The notes below the pieces were generated by a model, which saw only the letters and a program-made list of their open reading frames with translations, did not search any database and was not told the origin of the DNA. The position numbers and the translations under genes are program-made. This document shows positions 2,391 to 48,523 of a stretch of 64,000 nt of DNA, piece after piece. This stretch comes from Nemertoderma westbladi (lineage: Eukaryota; Animalia; Xenacoelomorpha): the NCBI GenBank assembly GCA_032718475.1, contig JAUCBJ010000476.1, positions 1-64,000 on the forward strand, read 5' to 3'. The number at the start of each line of letters is the position of its first letter. The first letter of the stretch is position 1.

Positions 2391-3726
2391 TCCTGGCTAT
2401 TTTATGAATTAAATTTTTTATGAAAAACAATTTCTATCTGAAAAATTCACTTTTTTTGTAGAAAACAGTGCTAGAAAGTAGTGCTTTCGCGCACTATTAC
2501 TTCTTTATACTACTATTTTAGAGGCAGAAATTACGTGATTTTAGATCAGTAGTCAGAGCGCACAGGTGCTGTGCTACTATTATTATTATTTACCGATATC
2601 GAGACCCGGTTGCAGCAGCAAATTTCGTAAATTCTAATCCTTAATATTGCAATAAAATTTGATCGGATATAATCACCTTCTTGTGCTATATTCACACATA
2701 TTCGCTATAATTACACAAACTCGTCAATGATCCCCAACTGGATGGGAATCAGTCCAGTCGGATTATTGATGACAATCATATTACCCGTAATTACTAAAAT
2801 CTCCCAAAACTTTAGCCTACTCCCCATAGAGAAGGTTTTGAAAATGTTATGCCTTTTCCAACAGTATTTATTAATATAGGCCTACTTTATATCACATAGT
2901 AAGAGTATACTTTGTACTGTCTGTACGTGAATGTACGTATATCGTACATTGCCCTTAACATCTTAAACAGAGTTGAGTTACGATATTATTATATTAACTG
3001 AGTAGCAGGCGATCTGTATACATGTACATACTCATACCATTGTACATGATAGGACACCATATCCCTCCCAATCCGTGGTTCCAACCACATGGGGGTAAAA
3101 TAGTAAACGCGAAACGCCTGCCTTCGCAAACATTACCATAGCGCAATTTCTCTGCATTAAGGATGGACTTGGTTGAGCATTTGGCAGATTAAAATATGAG
3201 CTCATGGTGTCAGCGTTAACAATCGTAATATCGAAAGACAGACGGCGAGCTAGGTTATCTCGGAAAGTATCAGGGTTCAGGTCACTATGGTAGAGCTGCA
3301 ATGGTTATACAATCAGCCATGCGCCAGTATGGTGATATGTAGTTTGTTCCCTGTACGTTGACGTTGAATAGGGGGGAGCAGAAATAGTACCTCAGCCTCA
3401 GTATCTCTTTAGGACATCTTGAGCTTCCCAACTAGACTTCAGAGCTTCAAATAGCAGATCTCGGCGCGGCGGTTTGCAGCCATGAAAATTATTCTATGTT
3501 TGATGGTGTCCGTCCACTAATGAAATTAAATGTTTTAATATTAATTGAAATGCATGCATGGATTGCTAACATAATTTATGTAATAATATATTATTTTATT
3601 CAAACTTAAGTATGACTTCTTTGATTAGCTGATCGAGGGGGGTGAGAGTGAGCAGTCTTTATATTACGATGGCCATGCTGCAACGGTATGCCTATACAAT
3701 ATAACTAATGCGTAGCTAGCTACAAA

Positions 3727-4417
3727 TGTAAGAGCGGTTTCTATGCTCTTGTGTATAAAACAATAAGATGATCTATGTGATTGTAATATGTTCAACTATA
3801 GTTGGATTTCACCCAGTTTACACGGTTACGTCCCATAAAGAAGAATAATTTGTTTATTTGATTGGGAATTAGGAGCATATTTATTATAGAAAATATATAA
3901 GATAATAATATACGATTATAAGCGGTAAGGGATAATAAGATAACGGAAACATAAGAACATTAATACATAATAAGAGATCTAATAATATAAACGTAAAATA
4001 TCGTAAGAGTCAAGAATACAATGTAATAAAGAGTGTTAATAGGGGGAGTTTCCGTTTGGGAAACTGCGGAATGAGACCGACTATATTGAAATGAGTAATG
4101 TTGAGCTCGGTAAGCTGTAGAAATACAGTGAAGTAATAATAGGGGTGACAGTGTGGTGGGCCTTGATTGGTTAATGGGTAATAAAAGGATTGTAGCGCAG
4201 TGGAGATACCTACCTAATATAGCTGAACAGAAGTGAAGGGAAGAATACAGCTGTTTATCTGTATAGGATAAACGGCTGTGAATCGGGGCAGCCAATAATG
4301 GTCGAATGAGTATGTTGGAGATGAGATAGATATTGGTTTGCAACAATAAGCTGGGAGAATGGGCGGTGATGTAATGATAATATATTTTTTATTGTTTGAG
4401 AGAGACCCGCCACTACA
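3727..4417 (-). repeat. 3' LTR of BEL/Pao element
   Basis: Direct repeat of 12923..13613 (identical 128-aa spurious ORF in both copies). On the minus strand it is preceded by the PPT-like AAGGGGGAC. Confidence 0.95.
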
Positions 4418-4595
4418 GTCCCCCTTAAAAATTTTCAAATTTTTACACGATATCTGGGCTTCCTCAAAACATCTTAAAAATTTCAAATAATCGAAGGAAC
4501 ATCTTGTCCCACTCAAATAATATTAATCTATGGCCTTTATATTTTACCTCGGTGGACGAACAGGACATACAAAACAACGATTACACACAGGACAT

Positions 4596-4760
4596 ACATT
4601 TAAAAGTATGGGTAAACCATACGAATGACAGATAAACATAAAGGATACATATATGACGTACATTTAAAAGTATGGAGTTGCCATACGAGTGAAACAGACG
4701 TACAGAAGACAACACATATAACACGGAGGACAAACATTTAAAAGTATGGATATGCCATAC
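4596..4760 (-). repeat. Three spaced copies of ACATTTAAAA-GTATGG-N5-CCATAC in the BEL 3' UTR
   Basis: Copies at 4596-4622, 4660-4686 and 4734-4760; invariant 6-bp stem; loops gtaaa, agttg, atatg. Confidence 0.8.
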
Positions 4761-5407
4761 AAAGGAGATAAGAAGCTCCTTGGTGTCTAAAGGGTCATTG
4801 AAGGTCAAAGATTAACATTATTAATACAATACTTAAGGAAGGTAATTTGTTCAGTAATGTATTTGACGAAGTTAAGATACGTGTAATATTCAAATAATGT
4901 ATCGTCAATTTTGTAAAATTAAGTTAAAATTGTTTATAATATATCTCATCTTAAGGACACTATGTAAATAGGAAACGATAAACAATTATGACACAATGAT
5001 TTAGGATTATAGATTAGGTTGTTAGGAGTGTGGTGATAGATTAGTTAGAGTAACTACTATAGGGTGAATAAATTCAAAATACTTATGAATTACACCACTA
5101 CATTACATTGTTTACAATGTACCCTGTAAACTCGACCATCACCAATTGACACGGTTAATACTTAATAATATCTTTACCAATGGATCTCTAGTTATAATTT
5201 TATAGTTCGTTGCTTATAGTTCCATTTAACCGAGTTCAATATGCATCCTTCAGTGGTAGTCAACAAAGATGTGGACGACCATCATATCATACCCAGGAAT
5301 TTTGGTAGCCAAAACCTAAAAGGAAATTAAGGGAAATTATTTAATATTTGATAAGTATACAAAGTATGCTGGTTTATTAGTTAATTAATTTTAGTAGTAG
5401 TTTATTG

Positions 5408-8400
5408 TTACTTATTTATTTCCTCTAAGAGGCATAGTTTATCAAGTGGTCTTTTGTAAACTCCCAAGGAGGTTTTTACTTCAACTGATCTAATTAACCC
5501 CACATCATCAGGGTATACTTGCGTTATACGACCCACACTCCAACTACTGCGTGTTTGACCTTCATCTACAAGCAATACGACATCGCCTACTGCAAGGTTG
5601 TTGCGAACACGTGTCCACTTCTGTCTTGATTGAAGTGTCACTAAGTATTCGCGTACCCAGCGGGTCCAAAAATGATTGGCTAGTAACTGAGCCTGGCGCC
5701 ATTTACGAGTTGAGTATGTATCACTGTCGTAGATGGGACCTGGTGGTAAATTGTAAGCAGGGCGCTGTAATAGAAGGTGGTTCGGAGTTAATATTTCATC
5801 AGCTTTAGGGTCATCGGTACTAAGGCACAAGGGGCGGCTGTTTAGAATGCACTCTACTTCTGCTAATGATGTCACTAACACGTCATCTGTGACAAGAGAA
5901 TTTCCAAGGACCTGAAACAGAACTTGTTTGATTGAACGGATCAGCCGTTCATATACACCACCCATATGGGGGGCGTACGGTGTTATAAATTTCCATGTAA
6001 TGCCCTTTGGGCGCAGGGCAATATCGATCTGATGTTCCCATAGTTCCAGGTTTTGCCGTAATTCTGACTCGGCACCTACGAAGTTTCCCCCATTGTCTGA
6101 AACTATTTCCTTTGGCGAACCTCTCCGTGCTTTAAAACGGGAGAACACATTGATAAAGGCATCAGCTGATGCATCAGCAGCTACATCGAGGTGTACTGCT
6201 CTACAGTTAAGGCACGTAAAGATAAAGGCATAACGCTTTATAGAACCTCTCCCGTATTTGACCTTTAGTGGACCAAACATATCAACGGCTGAAAACGTAA
6301 ATGGCGGCTCATATGGGGTCAGTCTAGAGGACGGCAATGGCGCCATAAGCTGATTCACACGTGGAGCCTTACATTGCCGACATTTAAAGCACTTACGTAT
6401 TAAAGACTTGCAGAAAGTGATAAGGCCAGGGATCCAATAGGATTCCCTTACCTTGGCAACTACTTGGTTGGGACCGGCATGTAATAAATAGATGTGCCAG
6501 TGCCATACTATGACATTTGTAAGTGGGTGTAACTTACTCAAAATTATAGGGTGTTTTGTATCGTAGGATACTGGGGCGGAGGTAATGCGGCCACCTACCC
6601 GCAATAAACCATCCTGAGTTAGGATTGGGGCTAGATTAGCTAGTGGGCTTGAGCTAGCTACTGGGGATGAATGCAGTAACATTTGAATTTCGTTGGGATA
6701 GGATTGCCTCTGTGAGAAATAAATTAGACATCGTCCAGCATGGTGACGTTCACTTACCGAGACAAATCTCCCTTTAAGATTTAAGACCGAATTTGGATTT
6801 AAAGAATACTTGCAAAGACGTAAGATCCATGCGAACAGAGTCTGTAATTTATTCCATGACGAATGTTTAGCTATAAGTGAACCTATAGCATTAAATGCTG
6901 TGTTAGAATCAATGTGGACATTAAGAATTATTTCAGTGTCAGGATTGTGGTATGGTGTCTGTTCTTCGACAACTATGTCAAACCAAAAGTCCGTCATGGT
7001 GATGTCATCGTTATAATCAATATCAGATGATACCAATATATGAGAAGTTAGCACATCTGGGTTATTGATTAGTGTATTAGTGATAGTTTCTGGGCATATG
7101 GTTGATACTGTCGTCCATGTTTCCTCAGGCTGAACGAGAAAAGGAGGCCCATGCCACCATTTCTGTGAATTAATGAGCTTGACTGCTGTAAGCCCACGAG
7201 TAATGTCATCTGCAGGGTTTAAATGACCAGGTACATGTTGCCATTGTGAACTGGTTGTACGATCAAGGATATACTTAGCGCGGTTGTGAACAAAACATCG
7301 AAATTGCTTGACGGTGTTGTTTATGTACCCAAGTACGACAGTAGAGTCTGTCCAAAAATAACATTTAGCGATTGGTAAGTCTAGGGATTCTAACACAGTT
7401 TCACTTACCTGTGCTGCTAAAACTGCAGCTTGGAGCTCTAATCGAGGAACTGAATGTCCAGAGGCTGTACGAACTAACTTACCTTTGCTGAAAACGAAAG
7501 ATGAATTTATTTCATTATCACTTACAGATCGGATGTACAATACTGTACCGTAGGCCACTTTAGAAGCGTCTGAGAAAATATGTAGCTGGTAGTTGATTGG
7601 ACCCGAATGGACGGGGATGTACATCCTAGGGATTTCCAGTTCGCTGAGCATAGGAAGTTGATCTCGCCACTTCATCCATTGACGTGCTGTATCTGGTGGG
7701 AGTGGGGTATCCCAGTCTAATTCCATTGACCACATTTTTGCTATAACTAATCGACCTGCTATGATTAAAGGCAAGATAAAGTTAATGGGATCGTACAATG
7801 AGCTAGTCAAAGAGACGCATCCCCGTTTAGTTAATGGTGTGTTTTTAAGCACATAGGAGAATATGAAGTTATCTGAATTTGTGTCCCAGGAAACTCCAAG
7901 GGCACGGGTTATAGGAAGATTATCAAAATCTAAGTTAATGAAGGATTTTGCCTTTTCTGAATCGGGAAAGGCATCTAGGAATTGTCTAGAATTGGAGGCA
8001 AATTTTGTAAGGTGAAAGCCACCTAATTTGAGGCAATCTACCATTCCAGAAGCGATGTGAATAGCTTCAGAGACAGATGCTGCACTTTTGAGGCCATCAT
8101 CCACATACATGTGGCGATTAATGGCATCAATCACCTCCGGGCTAAAATGACTGGCATTATCAATAGCAGTTCGTTTGACTGATCCTGATGCCACAAAGGA
8201 TGAATCGCATGCACCAAATATATGTACTAACATTTGGTAAGTCTCCACTGTGGTAGAGCCATCGGGTTGCCACAAAAAGCGAAGACTATCGGCATCGCCT
8301 GGTGTGACTCTCACCTGGTGGTACATTTCCTTTATGTCGCAGGTGAAAGCCACAGGAGATTGTCGAAAACGCAAAAGAATTCCAATAAGGCTACTGGTGA

Positions 8401-9538
8401 GATTAGGACCTTCTAACAGTTGACTATTGAGGGACATCCCTCGGTATAAGGCAGCAGCATCATTTACGATCCTTATCTCACCAGGCTTGTTGGGATTCTC
8501 AACAAAATGATGGGCGAGGTAATATGTCTGTGGCCCTGGGGTTATCTCACATGGTAGGAGTTTGCGAGCATAACCCTTCAAGACATAATCGTCTATTTTT
8601 TGTTGATAAAGGGCATGGATATGTGGCTTACGATGTAGCTGACGGATTAAATATGCGAAACGGGATTTTGCCATATTATAATTATTAATTAATAATGGAG
8701 GTGAGTCCCTCCAGAGCATTCCTACCTGATAGTGACCATCCACTAGACGTATTGACTTAGAAAACATTTCTAATGCTTTTAAGTCATCCATGGATGGTGA
8801 TAGAAACTCATCGATGAGGGGTGAGGGTTTTGGGTCTGAAGGTGAACTTTCAGCAAAACTCTGAAATTTCATCCATTGAGTGACCTGTTTAGAGATGTCG
8901 CGGTCTGTGCAAGGGTCATTGACTGTGATGTGATTAAACTGTGTTACTGTACTATTGGGTTCAACTGCTTTACAGCTCACAGGACCGATTATGCACCATC
9001 CAAATGGTGTCCTAATTGCAGAGGGATTAGGGTTCCCAGCCTTTGGGAATACATGTACATCCCTAGCTAGGGCCTCAGGATGGTTACCACCAACCAGAAT
9101 TGTGATTGATGGGATATCAAGATTAGGGCAGCATGTCACATATGGCAATATGTGATCTAAGTGCTGGAGCGTTTTAGGACACAGTTGTGTTACATCATAT
9201 GAGTAATCCCTTTTGAAATCGGGGACTACAAATACTTGAGGCATGTTGATGACAAAATTGGGTTTAATTTCTGGCTGCCCTTTGATAGGTGAGATACTAC
9301 ATGATATTTCCCCTAGAGAAACAGACATATTTGATTGGAAGACAGTACTGACATTAAGAGAAGTAGTTTCGGGAATGATACCAAGAGTATCGGTTACATT
9401 TTTGTCAACAAATGTCGCAGTAGACCCATCATCAAGAAGTGCATATGTAGTGAGTGATTTATTGGCAATGCATATGGTTACTGGGACTACTGATAACCAT
9501 ACGGGTTGTACTTTGGCAATTGATAAGTGTACAGACAT
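5408..9538 (-). CDS. pol: BEL/Pao Pol (aspartic protease, RT, RNase H, integrase)
   Basis: ALLDDGSTATF protease motif; DIKEMYHQV and MYVDD (RT); HIFSDASKVAYG (RNase H); H..HAG..C..C zinc finger with VDMFGP/SDNGGNF/GGVYER (integrase); BEL-type C-terminus FWTRWVREYL. Confidence 0.95.
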   Translation of the reverse strand: MSVHLSIAKVQPVWLSVVPVTICIANKSLTTYALLDDGSTATFVDKNVTDTLGIIPETTSLNVSTVFQSNMSVSLGEISCSISPIKGQPEIKPNFVINMPQVFVVPDFKRDYSYDVTQLCPKTLQHLDHILPYVTCCPNLDIPSITILVGGNHPEALARDVHVFPKAGNPNPSAIRTPFGWCIIGPVSCKAVEPNSTVTQFNHITVNDPCTDRDISKQVTQWMKFQSFAESSPSDPKPSPLIDEFLSPSMDDLKALEMFSKSIRLVDGHYQVGMLWRDSPPLLINNYNMAKSRFAYLIRQLHRKPHIHALYQQKIDDYVLKGYARKLLPCEITPGPQTYYLAHHFVENPNKPGEIRIVNDAAALYRGMSLNSQLLEGPNLTSSLIGILLRFRQSPVAFTCDIKEMYHQVRVTPGDADSLRFLWQPDGSTTVETYQMLVHIFGACDSSFVASGSVKRTAIDNASHFSPEVIDAINRHMYVDDGLKSAASVSEAIHIASGMVDCLKLGGFHLTKFASNSRQFLDAFPDSEKAKSFINLDFDNLPITRALGVSWDTNSDNFIFSYVLKNTPLTKRGCVSLTSSLYDPINFILPLIIAGRLVIAKMWSMELDWDTPLPPDTARQWMKWRDQLPMLSELEIPRMYIPVHSGPINYQLHIFSDASKVAYGTVLYIRSVSDNEINSSFVFSKGKLVRTASGHSVPRLELQAAVLAAQVSETVLESLDLPIAKCYFWTDSTVVLGYINNTVKQFRCFVHNRAKYILDRTTSSQWQHVPGHLNPADDITRGLTAVKLINSQKWWHGPPFLVQPEETWTTVSTICPETITNTLINNPDVLTSHILVSSDIDYNDDITMTDFWFDIVVEEQTPYHNPDTEIILNVHIDSNTAFNAIGSLIAKHSSWNKLQTLFAWILRLCKYSLNPNSVLNLKGRFVSVSERHHAGRCLIYFSQRQSYPNEIQMLLHSSPVASSSPLANLAPILTQDGLLRVGGRITSAPVSYDTKHPIILSKLHPLTNVIVWHWHIYLLHAGPNQVVAKVRESYWIPGLITFCKSLIRKCFKCRQCKAPRVNQLMAPLPSSRLTPYEPPFTFSAVDMFGPLKVKYGRGSIKRYAFIFTCLNCRAVHLDVAADASADAFINVFSRFKARRGSPKEIVSDNGGNFVGAESELRQNLELWEHQIDIALRPKGITWKFITPYAPHMGGVYERLIRSIKQVLFQVLGNSLVTDDVLVTSLAEVECILNSRPLCLSTDDPKADEILTPNHLLLQRPAYNLPPGPIYDSDTYSTRKWRQAQLLANHFWTRWVREYLVTLQSRQKWTRVRNNLAVGDVVLLVDEGQTRSSWSVGRITQVYPDDVGLIRSVEVKTSLGVYKRPLDKLCLLEEINK

Positions 9539-9646
9539 GGAATTGGTTGAACTTTGTGCGCTGATGTTGCCACCTTTAGATTTTGGTCGGTCGGTGTGGC
9601 TACCAGAGCTCTCACTACTCGCAGGGTCCTTGACACTCTGTTTCGA

Positions 9647-12600
9647 TTAATTGGAATCGGAAGCCTTTGAAAATACATACGCACCATGTAATAAGGTATT
9701 GTGTTTTCCTTTGCAATCGGGAGCAAAACACACATCAACAGATTTGCAGTCCGGAATAAGATGTGAATTTGCAAAACATCGAAAGCACAACTGGTATGAA
9801 CGTACGCAGTTTAACCGTTCTTGTGGTGTAAGATTTAGAAAGGTTTTGCATTGACTGATTTTATGCCCATGTTGTTTACAGCATGGGCAGGGGTGGGATT
9901 TTAACACTTTGGGATTATTACCGACCCCTGAAGTAACTGGGATATGTACTTCAGTGGCCAAGGTTGTGACCTTTGGGCGAGGCTCAAATGAGCCACGGTC
10001 AACTATACTATAAACAGGGTCATTTATAATATCGGCTTCATTGTCAAGGAAGTCCGCAAGCTCATTGAGAGTGGGTTCCTTTTGAGAACGAGCACGAATA
10101 CCGTGAGCAACTCGACGCCATCTTGCAAGATGCTCAGTTGGTAGGTTAGAGGCAACTTGTTTGAGGTTCGAGGTAGCATTCATTTCATGACTGTTGCTCA
10201 AGTGCTGAAGAATGGTAACCTTACTTCTTACCTTATCAGCATAGTCACGAAGTTTTTCCCTTTTTATTCCAAAAGATCCATTTAAATCTACAGAAGAGAC
10301 GAGATCTCTTAGTGTAGCTTCAATGATTACACTAGGGTGACCATAACGTTTATGCAAGGTCTCCCAAGCCTTAGTGTAACCATTTGAAAGTCCTTCATAA
10401 GCCTCCACTAGCTCATGAGGTTTGCCAGACGTATATTGTAAAAGGTACTGCAATTTTTCCACATCAGAAAAATCACGCGTCGATATGAGCCTTAAAAGTA
10501 GCCACAAACGATATATACTTAGCTGAATCACCACTAAATTTTGTAGGTTCAGGGCGTGGCAAGGATAGCTTAGTATTTAATTTGCCTAAGGCATCCAGGG
10601 TGTGAGAGAGACCAGAATCTTGTAAGGCAAAATCTGATGGCGCACCATTGTGTGGGTTGGGTAATGGGGACCCTCCAAAATAGACACCACTTGATACTAT
10701 AGTGGGGTCACCTGCAATGGAAATAGAAGATCTATCATTAGGGTTCATGGATGTAATAACCGATAGTGCAGAAATAGGAGCATTTCCATCGAAATATACT
10801 GGACCATTGTGTCCCCCCATGGCAAATTGTACAAGATTTGAATTAGGAGCATTTACTGCAGACTGACCAACAGAGATTGAACTAGCAGTTACAGATGCTA
10901 TGGGATTACATAAAATTCCAGGAGTCTCACTGTATTGATACTGTAGGCCAGTGGTACTATAAGGGAAACATTGTCCCTCGTCATATAAGTTTTGTCCCCC
11001 CATGGTAAATGATGGGACGTGAGATATATTATGGGTATTGTATAGCGCAGAAGCGGCAAACTTGGGGTGCCTCTCTCGTGCAGATTGTCCCGGAACATTG
11101 CTGGGACATGATGGGACACTTTGACCTATGGGGTGGGAAGGGTGGGTGAATTGTCCCCCTATGGGGCATGTTGAAACATATATAGATGGACATGTAAGGC
11201 TATTTACATCAAGAGATGTAAATGCCACGGGCTCCTCTTGACTATATTGTTCCCGGCTGGTAGTAAGATAGGATGGGACATATTGTCCTCCAGAAGTATA
11301 GGATGAATAAATGCATTGTCCGGCCGAGGAACTTTTAGGATATCTCTGAGAATACTGACTTAAGGAAGATGCAGTATTAAAAAGCGATGTTGGGGGTATA
11401 AAGAGACCAGTTGTACAAAAATTACCTAGTGGGATAATTTCAGAAACTCTACTATTAATTAGCGCACTAGTAGGTCTTATAGGAGACGTAAGATTAAAAA
11501 TTGGAAGTTGAGATGACACTACTGATGTTGTTTCTACAGTGACGGGGTAGGAATGAGATTGACTAGACTGTAGATTATTTTGTGCTGATTCATAGGAATC
11601 TGAGGCACTCACGTTAACAGGTAGGCCTGTGGTTGCCATGGCAACAGGGTCGACTGGAGACTCTGATTGGATCCTTGTATTAACAGTCACATTATTATTA
11701 AGATTACTTTCAGTTTGTAAATTAATTGGTACGTCATACGTGGGAGATTTTTCTGGTGATTGTAATAGCGCAGAAGCTACATAATCTGCTTCTGCTTCTC
11801 CAAATTCAGGTGATTTCAACTCTAAAGCTTCTTCAAGTGCTGCAAGTGCAAGAGCATCGCGAAGGCCACGTTCCTTTGCCAAGCGATTAATTTCTTTCTG
11901 TTGCCGCTCTGATTTTTGTAATAGCCGCTCTGATTTTTGTAATAACAATGTGTCAGCCCGATCTGCCTGAGCAGCTGCTGCTGACTGCTCGAGCTGTAGC
12001 AGAAGTAATTTTCGCTTGACTTTGGCACGATGAACTCGAACTGATGCGCTCGTAGAGGCTCGAGTATGTGCTGTAGAGCCAGAGTGAGTTGAAATTGTTC
12101 GATTACGTTTGAGCTCGCCAACTTGCAATTGTTCATGAGATGATACATACTGTGGAACATCTGAAGGCACGACTACAATGGGTATGGCGTTACTCTGACA
12201 TGTCTGGGTCTGAGTCACGGTATGCTCATTGCTATTAATATATTCGCGAATGTCATTGAGTTTAGATTCAAGGTCTGACAGTACAGTTACTGATTGTGCA
12301 GCTAGCTCACGTGACACATCAGAAAAACCAAATCTTTCGAAATCGAAAGTTGATTTTTCATAGTGACTACACAAAGATTTGTATACATTAATACAAGAAT
12401 TAAATATAGAATCGATATTAGTAGGGTCGAATGTAGCAGACCTTTGAATGGTAAACTCATTGAAACGTCGTGTAAAATGAGCCTTATAACCAGCAATCGT
12501 TCTCTTTACGTGAGTTAGATTAGGTACTGAACTCTCACTAGACATTTCTACGGTAGGATTTACAACAGATGCAACAGGAGTTGGTGAGATAACGTTTTCA

Positions 12601-12737
12601 ATACGTGTAGATGTAAGAGGTGACTTACCAGACTGTGTGGATACATCAGATTCCGAAGCTGAATGAATTTCGTCGTCCATTTGAACACCTTTGTTGTCCA
12701 TATTTGTATCCAAATTAAATAAAGGTGTCGTCTTCAA
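9647..12737 (-). CDS. gag: BEL/Pao Gag with long low-complexity N-terminus; frameshift near 10476 and in-frame TAA at 9647-9649 before Pol
   Basis: LPRPEPTKFSGD...EKLQYLLQYTSGKP BEL Gag core is split across two frames; Cys/His knuckles CPCC..H...C, CFRC....H....C, C....C...H...LH. Confidence 0.85.
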
Positions 12738-12922
12738 AATTAAAGTCTAGCTACGGTAGTTAGAATCGCCTAAATAGACTGTAATACATACCAACTTGGC
12801 TACAAAAGCTTAGTAACGTGGTATAGTAAAGAATTACTAAGAAATAAAATAATTCATATACAATTTAATTTATTTATTTATAATTGTAAATTTCATAGAG
12901 TTTTATTTGAGTTTTCCCAAAC

Positions 12923-13613
12923 TGTAAGAGCGGTTTCTATGCTCTTGTGTATAAAACAATAAGATGATCTATGTGATTGTAATATGTTCAACTATAGTTG
13001 GATTTCACCCAGTTTACACGGTTACGTCCCATAAAGAAGAATAATTTGTTTATTTGATTGGGAATTAGGAGCATATTTATTATAGAAAATATATAAGATA
13101 ATAATATACGATTATAAGCGGTAAGGGATAATAAGATAACGGAAACATAAGAACATTAATACATAATAAGAGATCTAATAATATAAACGTAAAATATCGT
13201 AAGAGTCAAGAATACAATGTAATAAAGAGTGTTAATAGGGGGAGTTTCCGTTTGGGAAACTGCGGAATGAGACCGACTATATTGAAATGAGTAATGTTGA
13301 GCTCGGTAAGCTGTAGAAATACAGTGAAGTAATAATAGGGGTGACAGTGTGGTGGGCCTTGATTGGTTAATGGGTAATAAAAGGATTGTAGCGCAGTGGA
13401 GATACCTACCTAATATAGCTGAACAGAAGTGAAGGGAAGAATACAGCTGTTTATCTGTATAGGATAAACGGCTGTGAATCGGGGCAGCCAATAATGGTCG
13501 AATGAGTATGTTGGAGATGAGATAGATATTGGTTTGCAACAATAAGCTGGGAGAATGGGCGGTGATGTAATGATAATATATTTTTTATTGTTTGAGAGAG
13601 ACCCGCCACTACA
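12923..13613 (-). repeat. 5' LTR of BEL/Pao element
   Basis: Direct repeat of 3727..4417, followed on the minus strand by non-tRNA PBS GTTTGGGAAAACT. Confidence 0.95.
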
Positions 13614-14436: not shown

Positions 14437-17400
14437 ATGGGCGATGACTTAGTTAAAAGAGTCCTTTGGGATTTTCAGAGACGGATAGAAAATGGACACG
14501 CCGTGAGGCGTGCCCATGCCTCCAAGGATGTAAACACGTTGTGTCAGACCGAGCGACAGGACAAGCCCATAATATACCGCGGTGTCATTGTGGAAGGAGA
14601 AAGAGACAAAATGTTGGCTTTTCAGAAAGATAAAAAGTTATGCGATGTTACAATAACAGCTGAAAATGTTACTATTGCTGCACATCGCATTATTTTATGC
14701 ACGTTGAGGTAAGTCACAATGATATATAGAGCAAACGTTTGCTGTAATTATTTAGGCTACACTATTCCTTTCCTTACCACCACTTTCAAATGAACTTCGG
14801 CTTTTATTAAATAAGTTCTACGCGTACTAACCATGTCTGTGGAGGGTGAGGGATCAGGTTGTTTAGTTTACATGGAAACTGTTCCTTATTTCGAAGTGCT
14901 CTAGCTTTAACTATTTTCGTGGTACTATTAGCTAGTCGCTTTGTTTTCTCGGGCAGGAAACCCTCGGGTCTACGGCCCTCGGGTTTTCCTACAGTACACT
15001 CGAGTAAAGTAACTGGGAAAATACTTCAAAACTGTGTAATAAGTATTGTAATGGGATACCAATTATTTATTGATAAGATAACATGTGGTGGTTACATGTC
15101 AATGGGAGTGAGTGTACGACTTCTTATGTGACAATGGAGTCGAGGTGTGAAGCAAACGCAAGGCAATATAGAATACGCAGAGTGTAAGGCTAATTTACAT
15201 TTACATAAGTTGAATTTGCTGAGTAAATTTGGGTTCCAACTTGGTGTAGTGGTTGCATTGAATTCACATCTCCTGTAGGTCGTGGGTTCGATCCTCACAT
15301 GGACCAGGGCAGTTTTCGTTTCGGCACGATAATGCTTTAGAGGACCAGCCAGGACGCATCTCTGCCTTGCATCCTTAAGTGGTAGCTAAATGAGTACTGA
15401 GCGACCGAAGAAAATTTAAGGCTCCTCTCTCTCTCAGTTGTTACCTGTATAAGGCAGGGAGGGTGCCACACTAACTCCCAAGATCCGATACTCCCACTAT
15501 ACAACCATTGTATTTACCCCCCAACCACCATATACCAGGTTCCCATTACAGCTGGGTGAAGCTAGTTACTTAGACTTGACAGCTTAATAATAACTGCGCT
15601 GTTCCTTTTCTGGGGCTCGAACTTACAAGCTTCCGGTTGGAACACGTACGCTCTACTAACTATACCTGGACAACCTGCGCCTAATAATATAGCCTACATA
15701 GGTACAACGGTCAAAATGGATATGGAATCAAATTTTGAAATAATATTTGAAGACGCAGCCAATTTAATTTCCCTACTTTCTAAGAATGTTTCCCTTCTTC
15801 CTACCACATGAGAGCGACTACACTGCTCTTTAGTAGCGTTGTTTGCGGATACCCTCAACGAATTTATCCGACTTTACCAAAGGTAAAATCACCACAGTAA
15901 AGACATATTTGTTTTAAGAAATAATATAATTTTTTTATTTCCTGCAGCCCTTACTTTGAAGCAATGTTCACCAATGGCATGATAGAGACTCACTCTAAAA
16001 CGATAAACTTATTTGTAAAGGCGGAAGTCCTTCGCGTGATTGTAGACTACGCGTATACTCGTAAAATAAGGATTACGTGGGAGAATGTGGAAGACATCAT
16101 TGAAATAAGGTTAATCGTTGCTAAATATCCTATATATATATCATAATAATTATACTACTAGTGCGTTTTAAATTCATAATTAGGAGCCCGCTCAAAGAGC
16201 AGGGATAGTTACTGTCAGAAAAAATTGTCAGTGAGGGATACATAGCTATCCATATGTTATCTATCCACCATATTACCGGAATTGCAGTTTCGTACACTTC
16301 CTACCTAGCTTATTTTCATAATCGCGTTACAAAATTTCAGATCGATTCTATGTTTGGTATTCGATGTATTTCGTTTTTTTTTATGTTATTTTGTCGCGAA
16401 ATTAAATGTATATAGACATTCATTGGCTGCTGTGACAGAGGAATACATAGATAGCTGGCTTAGGGGCATTATTAGGCGGACCTGACCCATTTGAATGCAG
16501 CCCTATTAATTAATTAACGGCCCTGTGCTCATAATAATTCAATCAGCTGGCCTACCATATAACATAGCAGTGAGTAACATTATAGATATTCCTATAGGAT
16601 ACACTGGGAAGAGATATTCAGCTGACGGGGTAATACATTATAAACAGTTATATATTTATTATATATATTATATATATTATATTATTATTATATATATATA
16701 TTATTATTATAAGAAACAATATGGGTACAGTACAACCTGACTGGCGAAATATATATATAGAAACAATGTGATCCAGTCTCCTATCAAAAATGAAACCTAA
16801 CTACAAATAAACACTTTAATAACTGCACGAATAACTATCCTATATATTAGAAAATACAGGACATTTAGTCCGCCGAAAGGGGTAAGTCTACATACTAAAT
16901 TTGATAAAAATAAAGGGTTTCAGGATTTAAACACTGTACCCGGGGAAACACAGCTCCATCATCAGCAGTGTACTGTGAGTCCCTACCCTATCTAAAAACA
17001 GCACAGTACCAATTGACCAATATAATACAGGAAATGAAACCAAATACTGAAATAGAGAAATAAACAAATCAGACCGGTAGTAAATAGATGAAACCCAAAA
17101 ACTGATACCACTAAAGGCTAAATAAAATACATGAAACCAAAATAAGAATGAACCCAAATGAGAACAGTGACCAAAAAGTGAACTACTATATCTAACCTGC
17201 ATAACAAATAAATCCATAATGGCTGTATTGCACAGTCTAATAATAGATATGTTATATAATGGTATGAATACAGCAGTAAATAACAACCCCAAGACCATAC
17301 AGACACCCCCCCCCCCCCCCCCCAAACACTGATAGAATAATGATACCCAATAGTAACTCCCAGAACTAGAGTAACGGAAGCAACTAGCTTTCAATAGGCT

Positions 17401-20400
17401 ACAAGAGGCATACTGCACAAGAAATATATAAGAAACAATATGGGTACAGTACAACCTGACTGGCGAAATATATATATAGAAACAATGTGATCCAGTCTCC
17501 TATCAAAAATGAAACCTAACTACAAATAAACACTTTAATAACTGCACGAATAACTATCCTATATATTAGAAAATACAGGACATTTAGTCCGCCGAAAGGG
17601 GTAAGTCTACATACTAAATTTGATAAAAATAAAGGGTTTCAGGATTTAAACACTGTACCCGGGGAAACACAGCTCCATCATCAGCAGTGTACTGTGAGTC
17701 CCTACCCTATCTAAAAACAGCACAGTACCAATTGACCAATATAATACAGGAAATGAAACCAAATACTGAAATAGAGAAATAAACAAATCAGACCGGTAGT
17801 AAATAGATGAAACCCAAAAACTGATACCACTAAAGGCTAAATAAAATACATGAAACCAAAATAAGAATGAACCCAAATGAGAACAGTGACCAAAAAGTGA
17901 ACTACTATATCTAACCTGCATAACAAATAAATCCATAAAGGCTGTATTGCACAGTCTAATAATAGATATGTTATATAATGGTATGAATACAGCAGTAAAT
18001 AACAACCCCACCCCAAGACCATACAGACACCCCCCCCCCCCCCCAAACACTGATAGAATAATGATACCCAATAGTAACTCCCAGAACTAGAGTAACGGAA
18101 GCAACTAGCTTTCAATAGGCTACAAGAGGCATACTGCACAAGAGATATATAAGAAACAATATGGGTACAGTACAACCTGACTGGCGAAATATATATATAG
18201 AAACAATGTGATCCAGTCTCCTATCAAAAATGAAACCTAACTACAAATAAACACTTTAATAACTGCACGAATAACTATCCTATATATTAGAAAATACAGG
18301 ACATTTAGTCCGCCGAAAGGGGTAAGTCTACATACTAAATTTGATAAAAATAAAGGGTTTCAGGATTTAAACACTGTACCCGGGGAAACACAGCTCCATC
18401 ATCAGCAGTGTACTGTGAGTCCCTACCCTATCTAAAAACAGCACAGTACCAATTGACCAATATAATACAGGAAATGAAACCAAATACTGAAATAGAGAAA
18501 TAAACAAATCAGACCGGTAGTAAATAGATGAAACCCAAAAACTGATACCACTAAAGGCTAAATAAAATACATGAAACCAAAATAAGAATGAACCCAAATG
18601 AGAACAGTGACCAAAAAGTGAACTACTATATCTAACCTGCATAACAAATAAATCCATAATGGCTGTATTGCACAGTCTAATAATAGATATGTTATATAAT
18701 GGTATGAATACAGCAGTAAATAACAACCCCAAGACCATACAGACACCCCCCCCCCCCCCCCAAACACTGATAGAATAATGATACCCAATAGTAACTCCCA
18801 GAACTAGAGTAACGGAAGCAACTAGCTTTCAATAGGCTACAAGAGGCGTACTGCACAAGAAATATATAAGAAACAATATGGGTACAGTACAACCTGACTG
18901 GCGAAATATATATATAGAAACAATGTGATCCAGTCTCCTATCAAAAATGAAACCTAACTACAAATAAACACTTTAATAACTGCACGAATAACTATCCTAT
19001 ATATTAGAAAATACAGGACATTTAGTCCACCGAGAGGGGTAAGTCTACATACTAAATTTGATAAAAATAAAGGGTTTCAGGATTTAAACACTGTACCCGG
19101 GGAAACACAGCTCCATCATCAGCAGTGTACTGTGAGTCCCTACCCTATCTAAAAACAGCACAGGTCAACTGTGCTGTTTTTAGATAGGGTAGGGACTCAC
19201 AGTACACTGCTGATGATGGAGCTGTGTTTCCCCGGGTACAGTGTTTAAATCCTGAAACCCTTTATTTTTATCAAATTTAGTATGTAGACTTACCCCTTTC
19301 GGCGGACTAAATGTCCTGTATTTTCTAATATATAGGATAGTTATTCGTGCAGTTATTAAAGTGTTTATTTGTAGTTAGGTTTCATTTTTGATAGGAGACT
19401 GGATCACATTGTTTCTATATATTATTATATATCTATATATTATATAGTTATAATACGTTATAAAACATTATTTGATTACTGTCTGTAATAGTGTGAGTGA
19501 GTAAACACAACCTTAAATACTTTTCTGCAGTTTGGGCATATCCGCACCAGCTGGTATTTCTATCATTGAGTCTAATGCCATTCAATACTATATAAATAGT
19601 ATTGTAATAGCGCCTCCATCAATACTATATAAATTGAAATATAACTTGCCAATTAATATACTTCGCGATACGCATTGGCCTACACAGAAACACTTGTCAC
19701 CTGTCACGTTTCACCTTATATATACGCTGGCTTGGCTTAGTGATTTTCAACGGATATTCCAATATTGTGACTAAGCAATCGCAGTTAACCAATCGCATTA
19801 AACCAAGTTTGGGCAGCTGTTATTACTAGTAAATCTCATTAATATCAAGAATAAAGTTCAACAAATTGAAATTTTGTGCAAACATCGCAAATTTGGCGGT
19901 TGATATTGTTGAAGTCTTTTAAGTAAAAATTATAAGTTCCAATATATGACAAGTTTTCTACAACTAATTGTAGTTTAGTACTGGATGGACTGGAGCTGTT
20001 GCTGGTTCTTTAAAGTCAACATTTTGAATACTCTCACTTAGATTAGATATTTTAGATAGTAATTCAACAATGACAGATGGTCTTACCAAGTCATTCAACT
20101 CAACTGACTAGTGTATTCTAACGATGTGTAATTTCGCTGTTATTGTTGGTCAGCTACCAGATGATAATCAATATTGTATGTTTAATTCTCATGGTCGGAC
20201 AAATGAAGTATGGCATCTTTGACAATAGTACTGTACAATAAATGACAATATTGTGACTAAGCAATATCACCGTTAACCAATCGAAGTAAACCAAATTTGG
20301 GCAGCTGTTATTACCTTCACTGTCTTCTTTTTTTGTTAAAACACAAACAAGTGCACACTCTATAATTGCATAGGCAAATGAATTTATTTATGTGCAGTTT

Positions 20401-30670: not shown

Positions 30671-31858
30671 TTATTTCTTAGACAAGGAATGTAACTCAGC
30701 ATATTGGGCTTCTGGTCCGGCATTCGGTGGGATTGTAAGCAGCCCCGAAGATACCCTGGCCCTTGGGATAACATCCCCTGGATCCATGTAGGTTGCCTCT
30801 AACGCTTCAATATTCATGTTTCCTGAACTTGTTGCACAATCGTCCATGGCGGCATCATTACTACGTTCATTGTTGTCACCTTCCGTCGCCGGCACTGTAC
30901 GGGTTTGCCCGCGTAATGTATGCTCTCTGTAAATTCGTCGTAGTTGCAACTGCCGGCAATTACAACATCTTGAAATTTCCTTATACACATTAGAATCACT
31001 GAAACACATGATGGATGTGAACAGTAAAGCTTGTAATCCTTGTAGTGAATATTTTATATATAAAATGGCATTTTCTGCAATATAAGAAGATGTGGAAACT
31101 TCATACCCATTAATAAATATAATATTATGTACACCCAATACCGGAAGCAGGTAAAGTATCTTGGCGCCACGCCAGAGTTGTCTGCAACATCTTTCATTCC
31201 AATTTGTGTACGCGGATGACATGATAATCAATGCACACCAAAACAAGTTGACTAAAAGAACCGCAAATTTAGCTCCTTTTAATACGGCCAAGAACGCGTA
31301 GTGTTTCGTTGTGTACCGCGGAATACACTGTTGGTTGCAAATTTCAAACGCGATGAGTATAATTATTTCCACAATAACGGGAATTGGAAGTATCCATCCT
31401 ATTATAAAATAACATTTGGGTTTCACTTGCTCTTCATATATTCTGTCCGGATTCGCTACAGTAAAGGCCCTTCTGACTATGTGAATTCCATAAACCGACA
31501 ACCACATGTAGCAGGAAAGTTCAGCATATTCCTGTAGGATGCGAGTGAAGAGACATATATTATATCTGTCATTGACATCTTGGGTGACTAGCAATACAAC
31601 ATCTTCAATAACTGTGAAACTTAAGTAAAATAAGTAAGTCAAACAAACGTTCTTAAAAATGAAATCCTTTGTCCTATTCAATGAATATGATATTGTATAT
31701 ATTGCAAAGCATATAACAACGGATGCTATTGATATACAGCATAATACAATGCGATATATACCGGCGACAATCAGAAACTTCGATATTGGGTTCTTTAACA
31801 AGTATTCATTGATTGATGATGAAAATAGGTATATACATTCTACAGTCTTTTGTGACAT
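30671..31858 (-). CDS. Class B (secretin/calcitonin receptor-like) GPCR, intronless 7TM, no N-terminal hormone-binding domain in frame
   Basis: Seven hydrophobic segments with class B motifs: C...ILQEYAELSCYMWLSVYG (TM3), YFIIGWILP (TM4), VNLF (TM5), LLPVLG (TM6), LQGLQAL...CF.DSNV..EI (TM7/helix 8). Confidence 0.85.
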   Translation of the reverse strand: MSQKTVECIYLFSSSINEYLLKNPISKFLIVAGIYRIVLCCISIASVVICFAIYTISYSLNRTKDFIFKNVCLTYLFYLSFTVIEDVVLLVTQDVNDRYNICLFTRILQEYAELSCYMWLSVYGIHIVRRAFTVANPDRIYEEQVKPKCYFIIGWILPIPVIVEIIILIAFEICNQQCIPRYTTKHYAFLAVLKGAKFAVLLVNLFWCALIIMSSAYTNWNERCCRQLWRGAKILYLLPVLGVHNIIFINGYEVSTSSYIAENAILYIKYSLQGLQALLFTSIMCFSDSNVYKEISRCCNCRQLQLRRIYREHTLRGQTRTVPATEGDNNERSNDAAMDDCATSSGNMNIEALEATYMDPGDVIPRARVSSGLLTIPPNAGPEAQYAELHSLSKK

Positions 31859-33799
31859 TTTTTAGGAAATTCCACTGTAATAATAAATAATGTAATTATT
31901 CCGTCGCCGAATAACCGGTCGCTAAAAACACTCGTTCTTCTTCTGGGTTACCTTATCTCCTTATGATTTATTATAGCTAATGTTTTTTTGTTATTTTTAG
32001 TGTTCTAGAAATATGTAAGCTATTATTTAAAACCAAAAAAGTTACAGATCATCTTTTAATTTGTTAACGTTTTTAAACATTTGACCAACCGATTAGTTAT
32101 TTGTTGAGTCATATTTTACGCCTTCAATCATTAGCTACAAGCGTTTAAAAAAGCGTTTTGTACCATTCCCACTGGAATATATTCAGCTTGTTGTTGTCTT
32201 CAAAACAATTAATAAACAAACAAGTGGTAATATAATAATATCGACAATATTTGGCATTTCTATGAGTAGCCCATTTTTAAGAAATTTTTAATCTATTTTT
32301 TTTTGATTTTATCTTTTTTTATTATATAATATGGTATGTTCTAGCCAAAACAAAAACAACTATATTTCATGTGCGACCAATCTGCGCTGGAGAGGTTTTT
32401 GCAATTGCGGTCAATGTGCACAACTATCCGTTTCTCATTAGCTAAAATAATTAATGGGAGAACACTTGTCAGTATATTAAATGAGAGCATCATAATAAGT
32501 AAGTTCTAGAAAAGAAAACATCATTAACAACGTCTCAATAAATTGAACCGCAAATCTTCCATAATTCCGAATTAATCTTGCACCATTATTGGGCCATGTC
32601 AGATGATAAATTTCAAGAGTAAATAATACAAAAATCAATTAAAACATATTATATTTTGGATTACTGTTGTTGATTTTAGGTGTAATTAAATAAAATAACA
32701 CCATACGATGTAACAATAATCGAATCAAATATTTTGGAACAAGGGTTGCTGTTGTTACAGATAGGGGGGGAAAGTGGACGTAATAAAAAATACAAAAATA
32801 AATACAACAATACATACAATAGTTTATTGTTTAAAAATTAATTAAAAATGGGGTACCTCCTATTCATATCGTGCAACGGCCCATTCATTTATATTATTCA
32901 TTCATATATATTTAACTCAGTTCATTATCAATAAAAATTATTACAAAAGGGTGTACGATACGGATCCGTTCCCAGAAAGAGTTCTTCTAGAAAATCTTTT
33001 GTTTTCTAGATATGTTATACAATGCAAATATTGGTTGTTATTCCTTCCAGAATATTACATTATAGCGCGGTCTGCCATAGGTATATATCAATTCATTCAA
33101 ATAGAAATAGTTCTTGGGCTCGGAAAGTATCTACTATCTGAATGAAGACCTCAAAAAGGACTTATGTTCGATTGCCACACGTACAGTAGTACTACAGTAT
33201 ACTGCAGTTTTGTTTCTTGTATAGGCCTACTGTGTAACTAATTCTTCTTCTACCCTAGAAGAGTGATCCATAAATAATTCTACATGATCAGATATAATAT
33301 TTGTAAATAATTTTCAGTCCCAATTAGAAAACACAATACTATTATTAACCATTATTATTATTTTAACTTCATAGCAATTAAATAATTTATTTAAATATAT
33401 TAGTAACATAGTAATAGAAACATTATTTGGAGTCCATCAATAAATATACAAATTGCCGAAATCGGCTAAATATGTAAAACTTAAATATATATTATTATAA
33501 ATTATTTATATATTTATATTTATGAAGTATTATTTAGTAACCCCTACATAAATATTCATAATTATCATGCAAATATCATTCAGTTCAGTTATTGCATCCT
33601 GCAATATTTTATAATTATTTTATTAATAAATGTTTATATGTTTATCGTTAAATCTTTAAATCATTATCGTTAAATGTTTATTTATCGTTAAATCTTTAAA
33701 TTTTATCGCTAAATGTTTATCATTAAATGTTTAAATGGTTATTGTTAAATGTTTAAATTGTTATGTTATTATGTTATTATGTTCATAGTTTAATGATAA

Positions 33800-35130
33800 A
33801 ATGCTGCAGCCTAGCCCATCCCTGGCTTTCATCCTTAACTGGTCGATAAATGGGAACCAAGGCAACTTTGGAAACAGAGTGGAAGGGTTTACTGTGGAAG
33901 ATCACTACTACTACTAGGATCGGCATGCTGCATTGCAGCTGCATTTTTAAGAATGCTGTGCCGGCTTATCGACAAAATTGCACCGCCACAACTCCCTATC
34001 ACCTATGACATTTGCTAGATCATCCGCATCTTCAAGGCCAGTGTCCTTTAAGATGCGTCTCAAGAAAGTCATGGGCTGTCCAACATTCTTATTCACTCCA
34101 TGAGGCTGCCAAAGTACAAGATTATGCACTGGCTGGTCCTCACGGCGAAAGCAATGTCCTGCAAAGCGGAGGCGATTTCGTTCTAGTGTCAAGCTTGGGG
34201 GAACCAATGAGACACCTCCAATGTTATATAGTGTCTCGTTGGAGATGTGTGCATTGTACTTGACACAATGAACCCGGCGTAGCATTCTTGTGAATGTGCC
34301 ATCCAGAGATTTGGTGTCCTCAGCAGTTAGAGCCCAGCATGGACTCCCATAGAGGAGTACTGGAACTACTGCTGCTCTAAATAATCGGACCTTAAGTTTC
34401 CGATTAATTCTCGGTGACTTCCAAATCCTGGAAAGCCTATTCAAGGCTGCCCATGCCTTTCCCTTACGTATTCGAAGGTCCTCACCTGACTTCCGGATCC
34501 GTGATCCCAGGTAACAGAAGTCATCCACATGCTTAAGCATACCATCTTTTGGGCTTATGCTCATCCGATCATAGACTTGCTGAGGACTTTCAAAGTTAAC
34601 TGTCAAAATTTTGGTCTTTCTGGAGTTAATAAAAAGACCAACACTAGAAGCAGCATGTTCTAATGAGCTGAGGAGCCGTTGGGTTCCCTCTAGTGATTCT
34701 GAGAGTACTCCTAAGTCATCAGCAAAGTCTAGATCAGTTAGGTACTTGGCAGGGTTTCCCCTACTTCTGGAGCCAGTAGGTGGAGTTATCATCACCCCAT
34801 CATCATTATGATGATCTAAGGACATGCGTAGAACATAGTCAACAACAATTATGAACAAGAATGGTGCAAGTGTGTCTCCCTGGAGGACGCCCCATAACAC
34901 TTCAAATGGTTCTGTGTCACCGTCAACAGTAGACACAAATGTTGTCGAACCATCGTATACTGATCTGATTGCTGCAATAATTTCATCAGGAATCCCATAT
35001 AATGAAAGTATGCTGAACATTCGTGAGCGAGAGACTGAATCAAAGGCCTTGAAGAAGTTTACTAGATCACCATGGTGGTGAACTGGATTTCCTTGGCTTA
35101 AGGAGCTTAAGTGATTCTCCAATTCATTAA
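33800..35130 (+). mobile_element. Nin-like SINE remnant interrupted by the RTE insertion
   Basis: GGCTTTCATCCTTAACTGGTCGATAAATGGGAACC core; continues after the RTE TSD at 35071; the empty RTE site is visible in the inverted copy near 63277-63290. Confidence 0.5.
33906..35063 (-). mobile_element. 5'-truncated RTE-clade LINE (RT C-terminal half intact)
   Basis: FKAFDSV, GVLQGDTLAPFLF, DLDFADD, FCYLGS, VLLYGS, RLRFAGH motifs; (TAG)n tail; 7-bp TSD AGATCAC (33899-33905 and 35064-35070). Confidence 0.92.
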
Positions 35131-35139
35131 TTAAATTTT

Positions 35140-36830
35140 TAAATGTTTATCGTTAAATGTTTAAATGTTTATCGTTAAATGTTTAAATGTTTATCGTTAA
35201 ATGTTTAAATATTTATCGTTAAATGTTTGAATGTTTATATATCGATAAATTAAATGTTTATCGTTAAATGTTTATCATTAAATGGTTAAATGTTTATCGT
35301 TCAATGTTTAAATGTTTATCATTAAATGTTTACATGTTTATCGTTAAATGTTTGTAGTTTTATAGTTAAATGTTTAAATGTTTATCGTTAAATGTTGAAA
35401 TGTTTATCGATAAATAATTAAATGTTTATCGTTAAAAGTTTAATTGTTTATCATTAAATGTTTAAATGTTTATCGTCCAATGTTTAAATGTTTATCATTA
35501 AATGTTCACATGTTTATCATTAAATGTTTGTAGTTAAATGTTTATCGTTACGTGTTGAAATTTTTATCGTTAAATGTTGAAATGTTTATCGTTAAATGTT
35601 GAAATGTTTATCGTGAAATGTTGAAATGTTTATCGTTAAATGTTAAAATGTTTATCGTTAAATGTTTAATTGTTTATCGTTAAATGTTGAAATGTTTATC
35701 GTTAAATGTTTAAATGTTTACCGTTAAATGTTTAAATGTTTATCGTTAAATGTTTAAATGTTTATCGTTAAATGTTTAAATGTTTATTGTTAATGTTTAA
35801 ATGTTTATCGTTAAATGTTTATTGATAAATGTTTAAATGTTTATCGTTAAATGTTTATCGTTAAATGTTTATCGGTAAATATTTATCGGTAAATGTTTAT
35901 TGATAAATGTTTAAATGTTTATCGTTAAATGTTTATCGTTAAATGTTTATCGTTAAATGTTTATCGGTAAATATTTATCGGTAAATGTTTATTGATTAAT
36001 GTTTATCGTTAAAAGTGTAAATATTTATAGTTAAATGTGTAAATGTTTATCATTAAATGTTTATCATTCAATGTTTAAATGTTTATCATTAAATGTTTAT
36101 ATGTTTATCATTAAATGTTTAAATGTTTATCATTAAATGTTTATATGTTTATCATTAAATGTTTAAATGTTTATCATTAAATGTTTATATGTTTATCATT
36201 AAATGTTTAAATGTTTATCATTAAATGTTTATATGTTTATCATTAAATGTTTAAATGTTTATCATTAAATGTTTATCGATAAATGTTTACATATGTTTAT
36301 CATTAAATGTTTACATGTTTATCATTAAATGTTTAAATGTTTATCATTAAATGTTTATCGTTAAATGTTTACATATGTTTATCATTAAATGTTTACATGT
36401 TTATCATTAAAGTTTTAAATGTTTATCATTAAATGTTTATCGTTAAATGTTTACATATGTTTATCATTCAATGTTTAAATGTTTATCATTAAATGTTTAC
36501 ATGTTTATCATTAAATGTTTATCGTTAAATGTTTACATATGTTTATCATTAAATGTTTACATGTTTATCATTAAATGTTTAAATGTTTATCATTAAATGT
36601 TTATCGTTAAATGTTTACATATGGTTATCATTAAATGTTTACATGTTTATCATTAAATGTTTAAATGTTTATCATTAAATGTTTATCGTTAAATGTTTAC
36701 ATATGTTTATCGTTAAATGTTTACATATGTTTATCGTTAAATGTTTACATATGTTTATCGTTAAATGTTTACATATGTTTATCATTAAATGTTTAAATAT
36801 TTATCATTAAATGATTAAATGTTTATCAAC
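35140..36830. repeat. AT-rich minisatellite (AAATGTTTATCGTT / AAATGTTT variants)
   Basis: Direct reading; also at 33627-33770 and inverted at about 62008-63210 and 63780-63940. Confidence 0.95.
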
Positions 36831-48499: not shown

Positions 48500-48514
48500 T
48501 GTTCGGTTGGAATG

Positions 48515-48523
48515 CACTTCCGG
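48515..48523 (-). promoter_or_regulatory. ETS/GABP motif CCGGAAGTG just upstream of the ATP6V0B start
   Basis: Exact consensus ending 15 nt upstream of the ATG, typical of TATA-less housekeeping promoters. Confidence 0.45.

Follow-up and report, generated by a model that had tools for sequence, protein, structure and literature searches.

Probable type-CSG hammerhead ribozymes in a tandem repeat of Nemertoderma westbladi and their possible link to Naiad Penelope-like elements

The hammerhead ribozyme can be split into three blocks, C, G and S, and the order in which block S, carrying the cleavage site, stands between the two core blocks has been named type CSG (Eckert 2023, PMC10085705). Type CSG is known there from two unique sequences, five in all, from soil DNA. 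Both CSG-1 and CSG-2 act in cis as monomers in vitro, with cleavage rates of 0.004 and 0.026 per min, and the discoverers called the biological relevance of this type less certain than that of type SGC. The latter (HRIMA-1 and its variants), with 583 sequences predicted from metagenome, metatranscriptome and RefSeq searches, differs in its S-G-C block order (PMC10085705). Here we describe the C-S-G order in the xenacoelomorph animal Nemertoderma westbladi, where it recurs in an array of ~720-bp units on contig JAUCBJ010000476.1 (assembly GCA_032718475.1), within positions 1–64,000 of the forward strand, the whole stretch analyzed and hereafter called the window.

Five identical hammerhead motifs are present, with CUGA at 16965, 17684, 18405 and 19122 on the minus strand and at 19210 on the plus strand. 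The initial annotation of this DNA had reported five copies in a ~720-bp array, and they stand at these five positions in units of 717–721 bp. It had also given the dimensions of the motif, all of which were recovered: a 6-bp stem I, a stem III of 4 bp, a stem II consisting of a U·U and 3 bp, a GUA triplet, segments of 13 and 5 nt, and a cut between 16937 and 16936. Its claim that the strand order is not a circular permutation was borne out by descriptor matches and by the block order, C-S-G, which defines type CSG. The core (C3 U4 G5 A6 N7 G8 A9, G12 A13 A14, A15.1-U16.1, H17) is complete in 5/5 copies, its halves lie 37 nt apart, and all three stems adjoin it as in other hammerheads. The circularly permuted order of types I, II and III is absent, and scanning the window for type I hammerheads picked up a single weak match, at 38779, but nothing within the array. 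An SGC reading of the array was rejected as a compact fold, as its blocks would lie 660 nt apart.

Copy 1 occupies 16915–16983 on the minus strand, 69 nt including a fourth helix. Read 5' to 3' along the ribozyme, it comprises the 5' strand of the fourth helix, which joins stems I and II (16972–16983); the 5' strand of stem I (16966–16971), pairing with 16936–16931; the CUGAUGA core of block C (16959–16965); the 5' strand of stem II (16955–16958), which forms the U·U and then 3 bp with 16925–16922; the 3' strand of the fourth helix (16943–16954); block S (16931–16941), with the 5' strand of stem III, the GUA cleavage triplet and the 3' strand of stem I; and block G (16915–16925), with the 3' strand of stem II, GAAA and the 3' strand of stem III. 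Copies 2 (17634–17702), 3 (18355–18423) and 4 (19072–19140, inside a partial unit) are on the same strand, with predicted cuts at 17656/17655, 18377/18376 and 19094/19093, whereas copy 5 (19192–19260, inside an inverted arm) is on the plus strand, with its predicted cut at 19238/19239. In evolutionary terms the five copies count as a single event and not as independent occurrences.

The 13-nt segment, previously taken for a loop, is present but not free. Positions 16954–16943 pair with 16983–16972 in 6 bp, a 2×2 internal loop and 4 bp, forming a helix between the strand 5' of stem I and the strand 3' of the stem II 5' strand, which is its position in type CSG. By duplex energy this helix is the most stable of the four (−14.5 kcal/mol, compared with −6.1, −2.3 and −4.2 kcal/mol for stems I, II and III). 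In a 301-nt context its pair probabilities are 0.89–0.97, next to 0.87–0.95 for stem III. Only 8 of 9141 14-mers sampled from the window, true partners counted in, bind the segment as well. Stems I and II cross the fourth helix, and ViennaRNA, being pseudoknot-free, cannot hold them alongside it, so that their zero pair probabilities are no evidence. Because the fourth helix belongs to the motif, the ribozyme measures ~69 nt, and the 57-nt monomer proposed earlier for in vitro transcription would be a poor test.

CSG-1 and CSG-2 share with the unit motif the C-S-G order, the intact core, the 6-bp stem I, a fourth helix at the same position with an inner U·G pair (Supplementary Figure 10) and a 5-nt linker starting UUAA (PMC10085705). 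At 10.1/11.1 the unit motif has U·U where they have G-C, and its triplet is GUA where theirs is GUC; its stems II and III are shorter, and its fourth helix consists of 6+4 bp with an internal loop. The setting differs too: a high-copy animal tandem repeat as opposed to two soil-DNA contigs. U·U at 10.1/11.1 occurs in natural hammerheads (PMC3088659), among them axolotl HHR_Amex2 (PMC7229834) and many of the Hydra-clade Penelope-like elements (PLEs; Craig File S2, PMC8557442), in whose hammerheads GUA triplets are common as well. Two published RNAMotif descriptors for type CSG call for G10.1-C11.1 and allow no more than 10 nt from stem II to stem III (PMC10085705), so the unit motif would escape both.

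Scanned with our own CSG descriptor, the entire 64-kb window gave matches only at the five motifs, and 60 simulated 64-kb sequences gave none. In 226 Mb of simulated sequence there were 16 loose matches and none with stems of 6/4/4, the fourth helix not being counted. The motif is thus far beyond chance. No Rfam family reached its gathering score in the window; an E-value scan returned 10 sub-threshold matches, no hammerhead among them, mostly to microRNA models, and these were rejected, with 9 of the 10 lying on the center of a palindrome. As standard descriptors and Rfam miss the CSG layout, surveys of animal ribozymes and retrozymes probably undercount. Pattern scans were also run on sequence collections. 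A loose pattern hit at least 120 loci in viral contigs, and 0 of the 120 listed passed the pairing filter; tighter patterns hit 21 metagenome, 1 + 5 viral and 20 prokaryote loci, and 1 of these 47 passed. This locus, positions 111–164 of metagenome contig L133, was dropped as a CSG candidate, since a minimal type I hammerhead with one additional U behind its core, lying within a short tandem repeat, is the better reading.

The array comprises four direct hammerheads and one inverted. Its head-to-tail part (16708–19163, minus strand) was segmented into three full units of 719, 721 and 717 bp (16708–17426, 17427–18147 and 18148–18864) and a 299-bp partial unit 4 (18865–19163), with three identical junctions and an exact period. 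It is followed, in window coordinates, by a 5'-truncated inverted arm of 259 bp (19168–19426, plus strand), producing a palindrome of ~520 bp centered near 19165. The left arm extends 40–45 nt beyond the right one, a tail-like 3' extension (16708–16752, minus strand) found at the left insertion end only. TA-rich sequence abuts both ends, the left tract covering 16648–16712, and each unit offers TA runs twice near its 3' end. A candidate 13-bp target-site duplication has its left copy within the TA-rich tract (16695–16707) and its right copy at 19416–19428, where the first 7 nt also match the element; it is low in complexity, and two other 13-mers score equally. The few sites at which the units differ indicate a young insertion. 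At two sites separated by 5 nt (equivalents of 16872 and 16877), unit 4 departs both from units 1–3 and from the inverted arm, perhaps a conversion patch or a template switch. Barring a later change in unit 4, these differences argue against an origin of the inverted arm by snap-back copying from that unit. The ribozyme strand of the array is 43% U. The array has no coding match, a 190-aa frame at 16927–17499 having no Pfam family. Upstream of the ribozyme, each unit also carries short degenerate internal repeats containing GAAACC on the plus strand (17024–17153 and 16790–16812 in unit 1).

This anatomy recalls Naiads, a group of PLEs whose insertions include partial tandems, an inverted 5'-truncated copy, a 30–40-bp tail and a bias toward (TA)n (Craig 2021, PMC8557442). 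Tandem and inverted layout, one-end tail and (TA)n bias are common to Naiads and this insertion, as expected of a Naiad-mobilized element, although this is a single insertion and the layout is common to other PLE clades. The U-rich ribozyme strand likewise resembles Naiad 3' untranslated regions (UTRs). Full-length Naiads measure 3.4–4.4 kb, whereas the unit lacks a reverse transcriptase (RT) or GIY-YIG open reading frame (ORF), and the array holds no ORF combining GIY-YIG, a CxC linker and RT that would make it an autonomous Naiad. Initially, the array had been described as mobile and retrozyme-like; both terms stand, and what was missed is the link to Penelope-like elements and Naiads.

Naiads are reported to be without canonical hammerheads, some having core halves 35–50 nt apart (Craig 2021, PMC8557442). 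We compared the Naiad consensus sequences of File S5 by eye, with the 3' ends of 10 of 54 records covered in full and further records as passages; this scope and mode apply to all Naiad folds below. In 8/8 nematode Naiad consensus sequences a complete CSG fold with the fourth helix can be read close to the 3' end, within the sense 3' UTR, with stem I of 5–6 bp, stem II of 4–5 bp, stem III of 6–12 bp and a fourth helix of 9–17 bp. The counts for stems I/II/III/fourth helix are 6/5/12/11 bp in Parc and again in the record preceding it (Ppac by metadata order, an assignment from record order only), 5/5/8/13 in 1_Nbra, 5/5/6/13 in 2_Nbra, 5/4/6/9 in 3_Nbra, 6/5/11/15 in Hcon, 5/5/9/17 in Hpol and 6/5/6+5/11 in Asuum. 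The triplet is GUC except in Hpol, where it is GUU, and the inner U·G pair is possible in four of the eight (1_Nbra, 2_Nbra, Hpol and Asuum). In each 3' end the motif stands once, with long local stems. Four of the eight were flagged by the Craig authors, as core or half-core only (PMC8557442). Stem sequences differ between most of the nematode families, and in CSG-1/2 too, while the pairing of all four helices is kept, which does not itself show homology to the repeat. To judge from these sequences, the differing but paired stems would be the covariation that type CSG had lacked.

Outside the nematodes, the two Naiad records covered in full (Lpol and Ptep) showed no CSG fold, and in passages from Octopus, Acropora, spiders and Darwinula GAAA precedes CUGA. 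The Octopus and Acropora Naiads present cleavage strand, GAAA and CUGA near the 3' end, that is, the S-G-C order (File S5), and both Octopus records agree with the unit motif in the five bases that follow the core.

Two further groups of hammerhead-bearing elements invite comparison. Non-LTR retrozymes (LTR, long terminal repeat), for which dependence on PLEs has been proposed, are non-coding head-to-tail repeats with one hammerhead each and low GC content (PMC7229834; 10.64898/2026.07.22.740005), and the present repeat is likewise a non-coding tandem repeat of low GC content with a hammerhead in each unit. Their units usually measure 150–450 bp, up to 972 bp in the 2026 survey (10.64898/2026.07.22.740005), compared with 720 bp here. 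They are defined by a type I hammerhead, however, whereas this repeat has type CSG; we therefore regard it as retrozyme-like in its working at most and do not class it as a non-LTR retrozyme. Minimal type I hammerheads of PLE pseudo-LTRs, which are thought to act as dimers, also lie in PLE repeats, sometimes as opposite-strand pairs 100–700 bp apart (PMC4209133), and they include examples with a U·U at the stem II base and with a GUA triplet. They differ from the unit motif in being circularly permuted, with no core pseudoknot and a tiny palindromic stem III (PMC4209133).

The repeat family is abundant in sequencing data, being found in 5/8 listed runs from three studies of one organism; one of these runs may be the source of the window. 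Contigs fitting the unit numbered 186, 150, 328 and 8 in four runs, of which two include contigs with the head-to-tail joint, and five further inversion joints were found at other positions in the four runs. Some contigs carry unlike sequence upstream of the motif, and one (X1 record 3) matches 16904–16974 only and is unlike the unit on both flanks. For the four runs, 40 of 83 variant sites of the unit are listed. A separate listing over the ribozyme, covering sites more than ~30 nt from alignment ends, gives four variants (16942, 16928, 16945 and 16953), none in the core and none in stems I–III. Of these only 16942 is common; it is the base that stays unpaired between stem III and the fourth helix. 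Site 16928 lies in the linker, and the change at 16945 turns a G-C pair into G·U. Two apparent traces of cleavage were set aside. A loose end at 16933, seen in three runs from two samples, could mark a copy whose start lies 3 nt past the cut; it probably represents a single locus, however, and was not counted. A break at 16935/16937 in a contig of run X4, considered as a scar of the cut site, is better explained by a single variant at 16936.

The explanation that we consider rather likely, arguing from sequence, is a non-autonomous, retrozyme-like element whose CSG hammerhead would cleave in cis and which a Naiad likely mobilizes. Its parts differ in strength. The fold is very probably a real CSG hammerhead, and the unit motif quite probably cleaves; with slightly less assurance, and by analogy with its published relatives, we expect it to do so as a cis monomer. 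The initial annotation had left the choice between a cis pseudoknot and cleavage between neighboring units, and the former is favored since cis cleavage has been published for CSG monomers and nematode Naiads show the same layout near their 3' ends. The helper of the repeat is probably a Naiad. That monomers become circles copied by rolling-circle reverse transcription, as suggested by analogous elements, seems to us slightly more likely than not.

In this mechanism, the nested helices (fourth helix and stem III) would form first, followed by stems I and II, whose closing would give two pseudoknots. Stems I and II would be kept side by side by the fourth helix together with the 5-nt linker, in place of the usual loop-loop contact, and the RNA would be cut after GUA inside one unit, as CSG-1/2 suggest. 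Read-through of the array would yield monomers of 719, 721 and 717 nt, likely circularizing in the manner of non-LTR retrozymes, and a Naiad enzyme, primed at TA runs, would likely reverse-transcribe them into TA-rich sites. A transcript that runs across the palindrome would lock copy 4 or 5 into a 259-bp duplex and leave the other copies free. A wider reading, which we put forward tentatively and rate a little below an even chance, would make type CSG, instead of an oddity of soil DNA, the standard ribozyme of one lineage of Naiads, seen in all eight nematode families compared, and this repeat the first retrozyme-like, circle-forming element on a doubly pseudoknotted CSG hammerhead, its ~720-nt monomers cut, circularized and copied by a Naiad; CSG-1/2 themselves may be Naiad tails.

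Several points weigh against the Naiad-moved, cis-cleaving element. None of the 10 comparators has a stem II (here 3 bp plus the U·U) or a stem III (here 4 bp) as short as these, and an axolotl hammerhead with U·U reached only 22% cleavage as a monomer, its dimer doing better (PMC7229834). An 86-nt fold is no more stable than shuffled sequences (z = −1.33, 20/200 as good). Both arms begin 70 nt upstream of the predicted cut, not at the cut. A change at 16976, carried at full depth by the only contig of run X4 that covers the site, disrupts a fourth-helix pair and weakens the helix from −14.5 to −9.6 kcal/mol; another pair is lost through the variant at 16953, in a single contig with further indels in both stem I and the core; and no compensatory pair changes within the family appear among the variants listed, with the scope given above. 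The Naiad pairings and base-pair counts were read, not computed, and no sequence likeness is seen between the repeat unit and these Naiads beyond the core, such that their common layout may be convergent. Short RT motifs are absent from the six frames of the window, in which no Naiad protein motif was found. Pattern scans of the metagenome, viral and prokaryote collections found no relative among the loci listed; the metagenome scan had no working positive control, as its pattern should fit CSG-1/2 but did not return them.

Of the competing explanations, the one that survives best, although improbable, accepts an active CSG hammerhead but no retrozyme-like circle: the unit would be the 3' end (pseudo-LTR) of an autonomous Naiad, or would have multiplied at the DNA level. 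It would account for the U-rich strand, for insertion ends away from the cut site, for contigs with unlike sequence upstream of the motif and for the two sites where unit 4 stands apart from an inverted arm that equals units 1–3. The three identical junctions, the exact period and the recurrence of the same junction in 2/4 runs nevertheless fit a fixed monomer better than random 5' truncation, and no ORF remnant was found in the array.

We also judge it improbable that the fold is real but is cleaved efficiently only between neighboring units or as a dimer, the C and G blocks using block S of the next unit in a type I or III arrangement with a ~690-nt loop. Against such a requirement, stem III is predicted to form locally with the high probability reported above, CSG-1/2 cleave as monomers (PMC10085705), and in nematode Naiad 3' ends the motif is single and has long local stems; still, stems II and III are short here, for many hammerheads of animal PLEs and of salamanders the dimer is the form that works best, and the motif does sit in a tandem array. 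Somewhat less plausible again is a decayed, nearly inactive CSG hammerhead riding as a passive passenger in a satellite-like repeat. The weak stem II with its U·U, the helix-breaking variant of run X4 and the lack of covariation within the family would suit such decay, but the core bases are intact in 5/5 copies, the common variant falls on an unpaired base, one diverged contig keeps the ribozyme region only, and the insertion, with units differing at few sites, is young. That hammerhead-like words came together by chance in an ordinary repeat, an idea for which one might cite the single event behind the five copies and the unremarkable folding z-score, is very improbable given the absence of strict matches in 226 Mb of simulated sequence, even before the fourth helix is counted, and a layout matching CSG-1/2 and eight Naiads.

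Rearranged hammerheads had been noted at the outset as rarely reported. Such forms are indeed rare, but this order had already been named and shown to cleave (PMC10085705). Type CSG in an animal mobile repeat or in nematode Naiads was not found in print in open-licence PubMed Central and bioRxiv; the strand order itself is known. The animal element and eight Naiad families with paired, differing stems would give type CSG its missing covariation and a biological home. If this is true, the published picture of Naiads as elements that have no canonical hammerheads and spread in their absence would need revision, which bears on the open question of the role of hammerheads for Penelope-like elements.

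The window looks animal, judging by a BEL/Pao element, a secretin-family G-protein-coupled receptor (GPCR) ORF and a WDR41 ORF. The BEL/Pao LTR retroelement (3723–13613) has 696-bp LTRs that are 99.9% identical and long open frames (Peptidase_A17, DUF5641 and DUF1759), and looks very recent. Further LTR-retroelement ORFs lie on the minus strand of a GC-rich region at ~50800–61000 (DUF1759 and aspartyl protease, 52426–54957; RT/RNase H, 58025–60937), where a 275-bp repeat pair occurs at 50797–51069 and 57789–58061. The WDR41-like match (1212–2396), the secretin-family GPCR (30671–31861) and an ATP-synthase subunit C (47858–48526) each occupy one uninterrupted frame, which suggests intron-poor genes or retrocopies; the best match of the WDR41-like ORF is 36% identical, and its matches fall in animal-like clusters only. 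Satellite arrays of 22/44-bp units at 33600–36830 and 62005–63990, in opposite orientation and separated by ~25 kb, might represent the long terminal inverted repeats of some large element. Young tandem arrays with 97% identity are formed by 42-bp units at 37479–37850 and by 28-bp units at 42109–43698.

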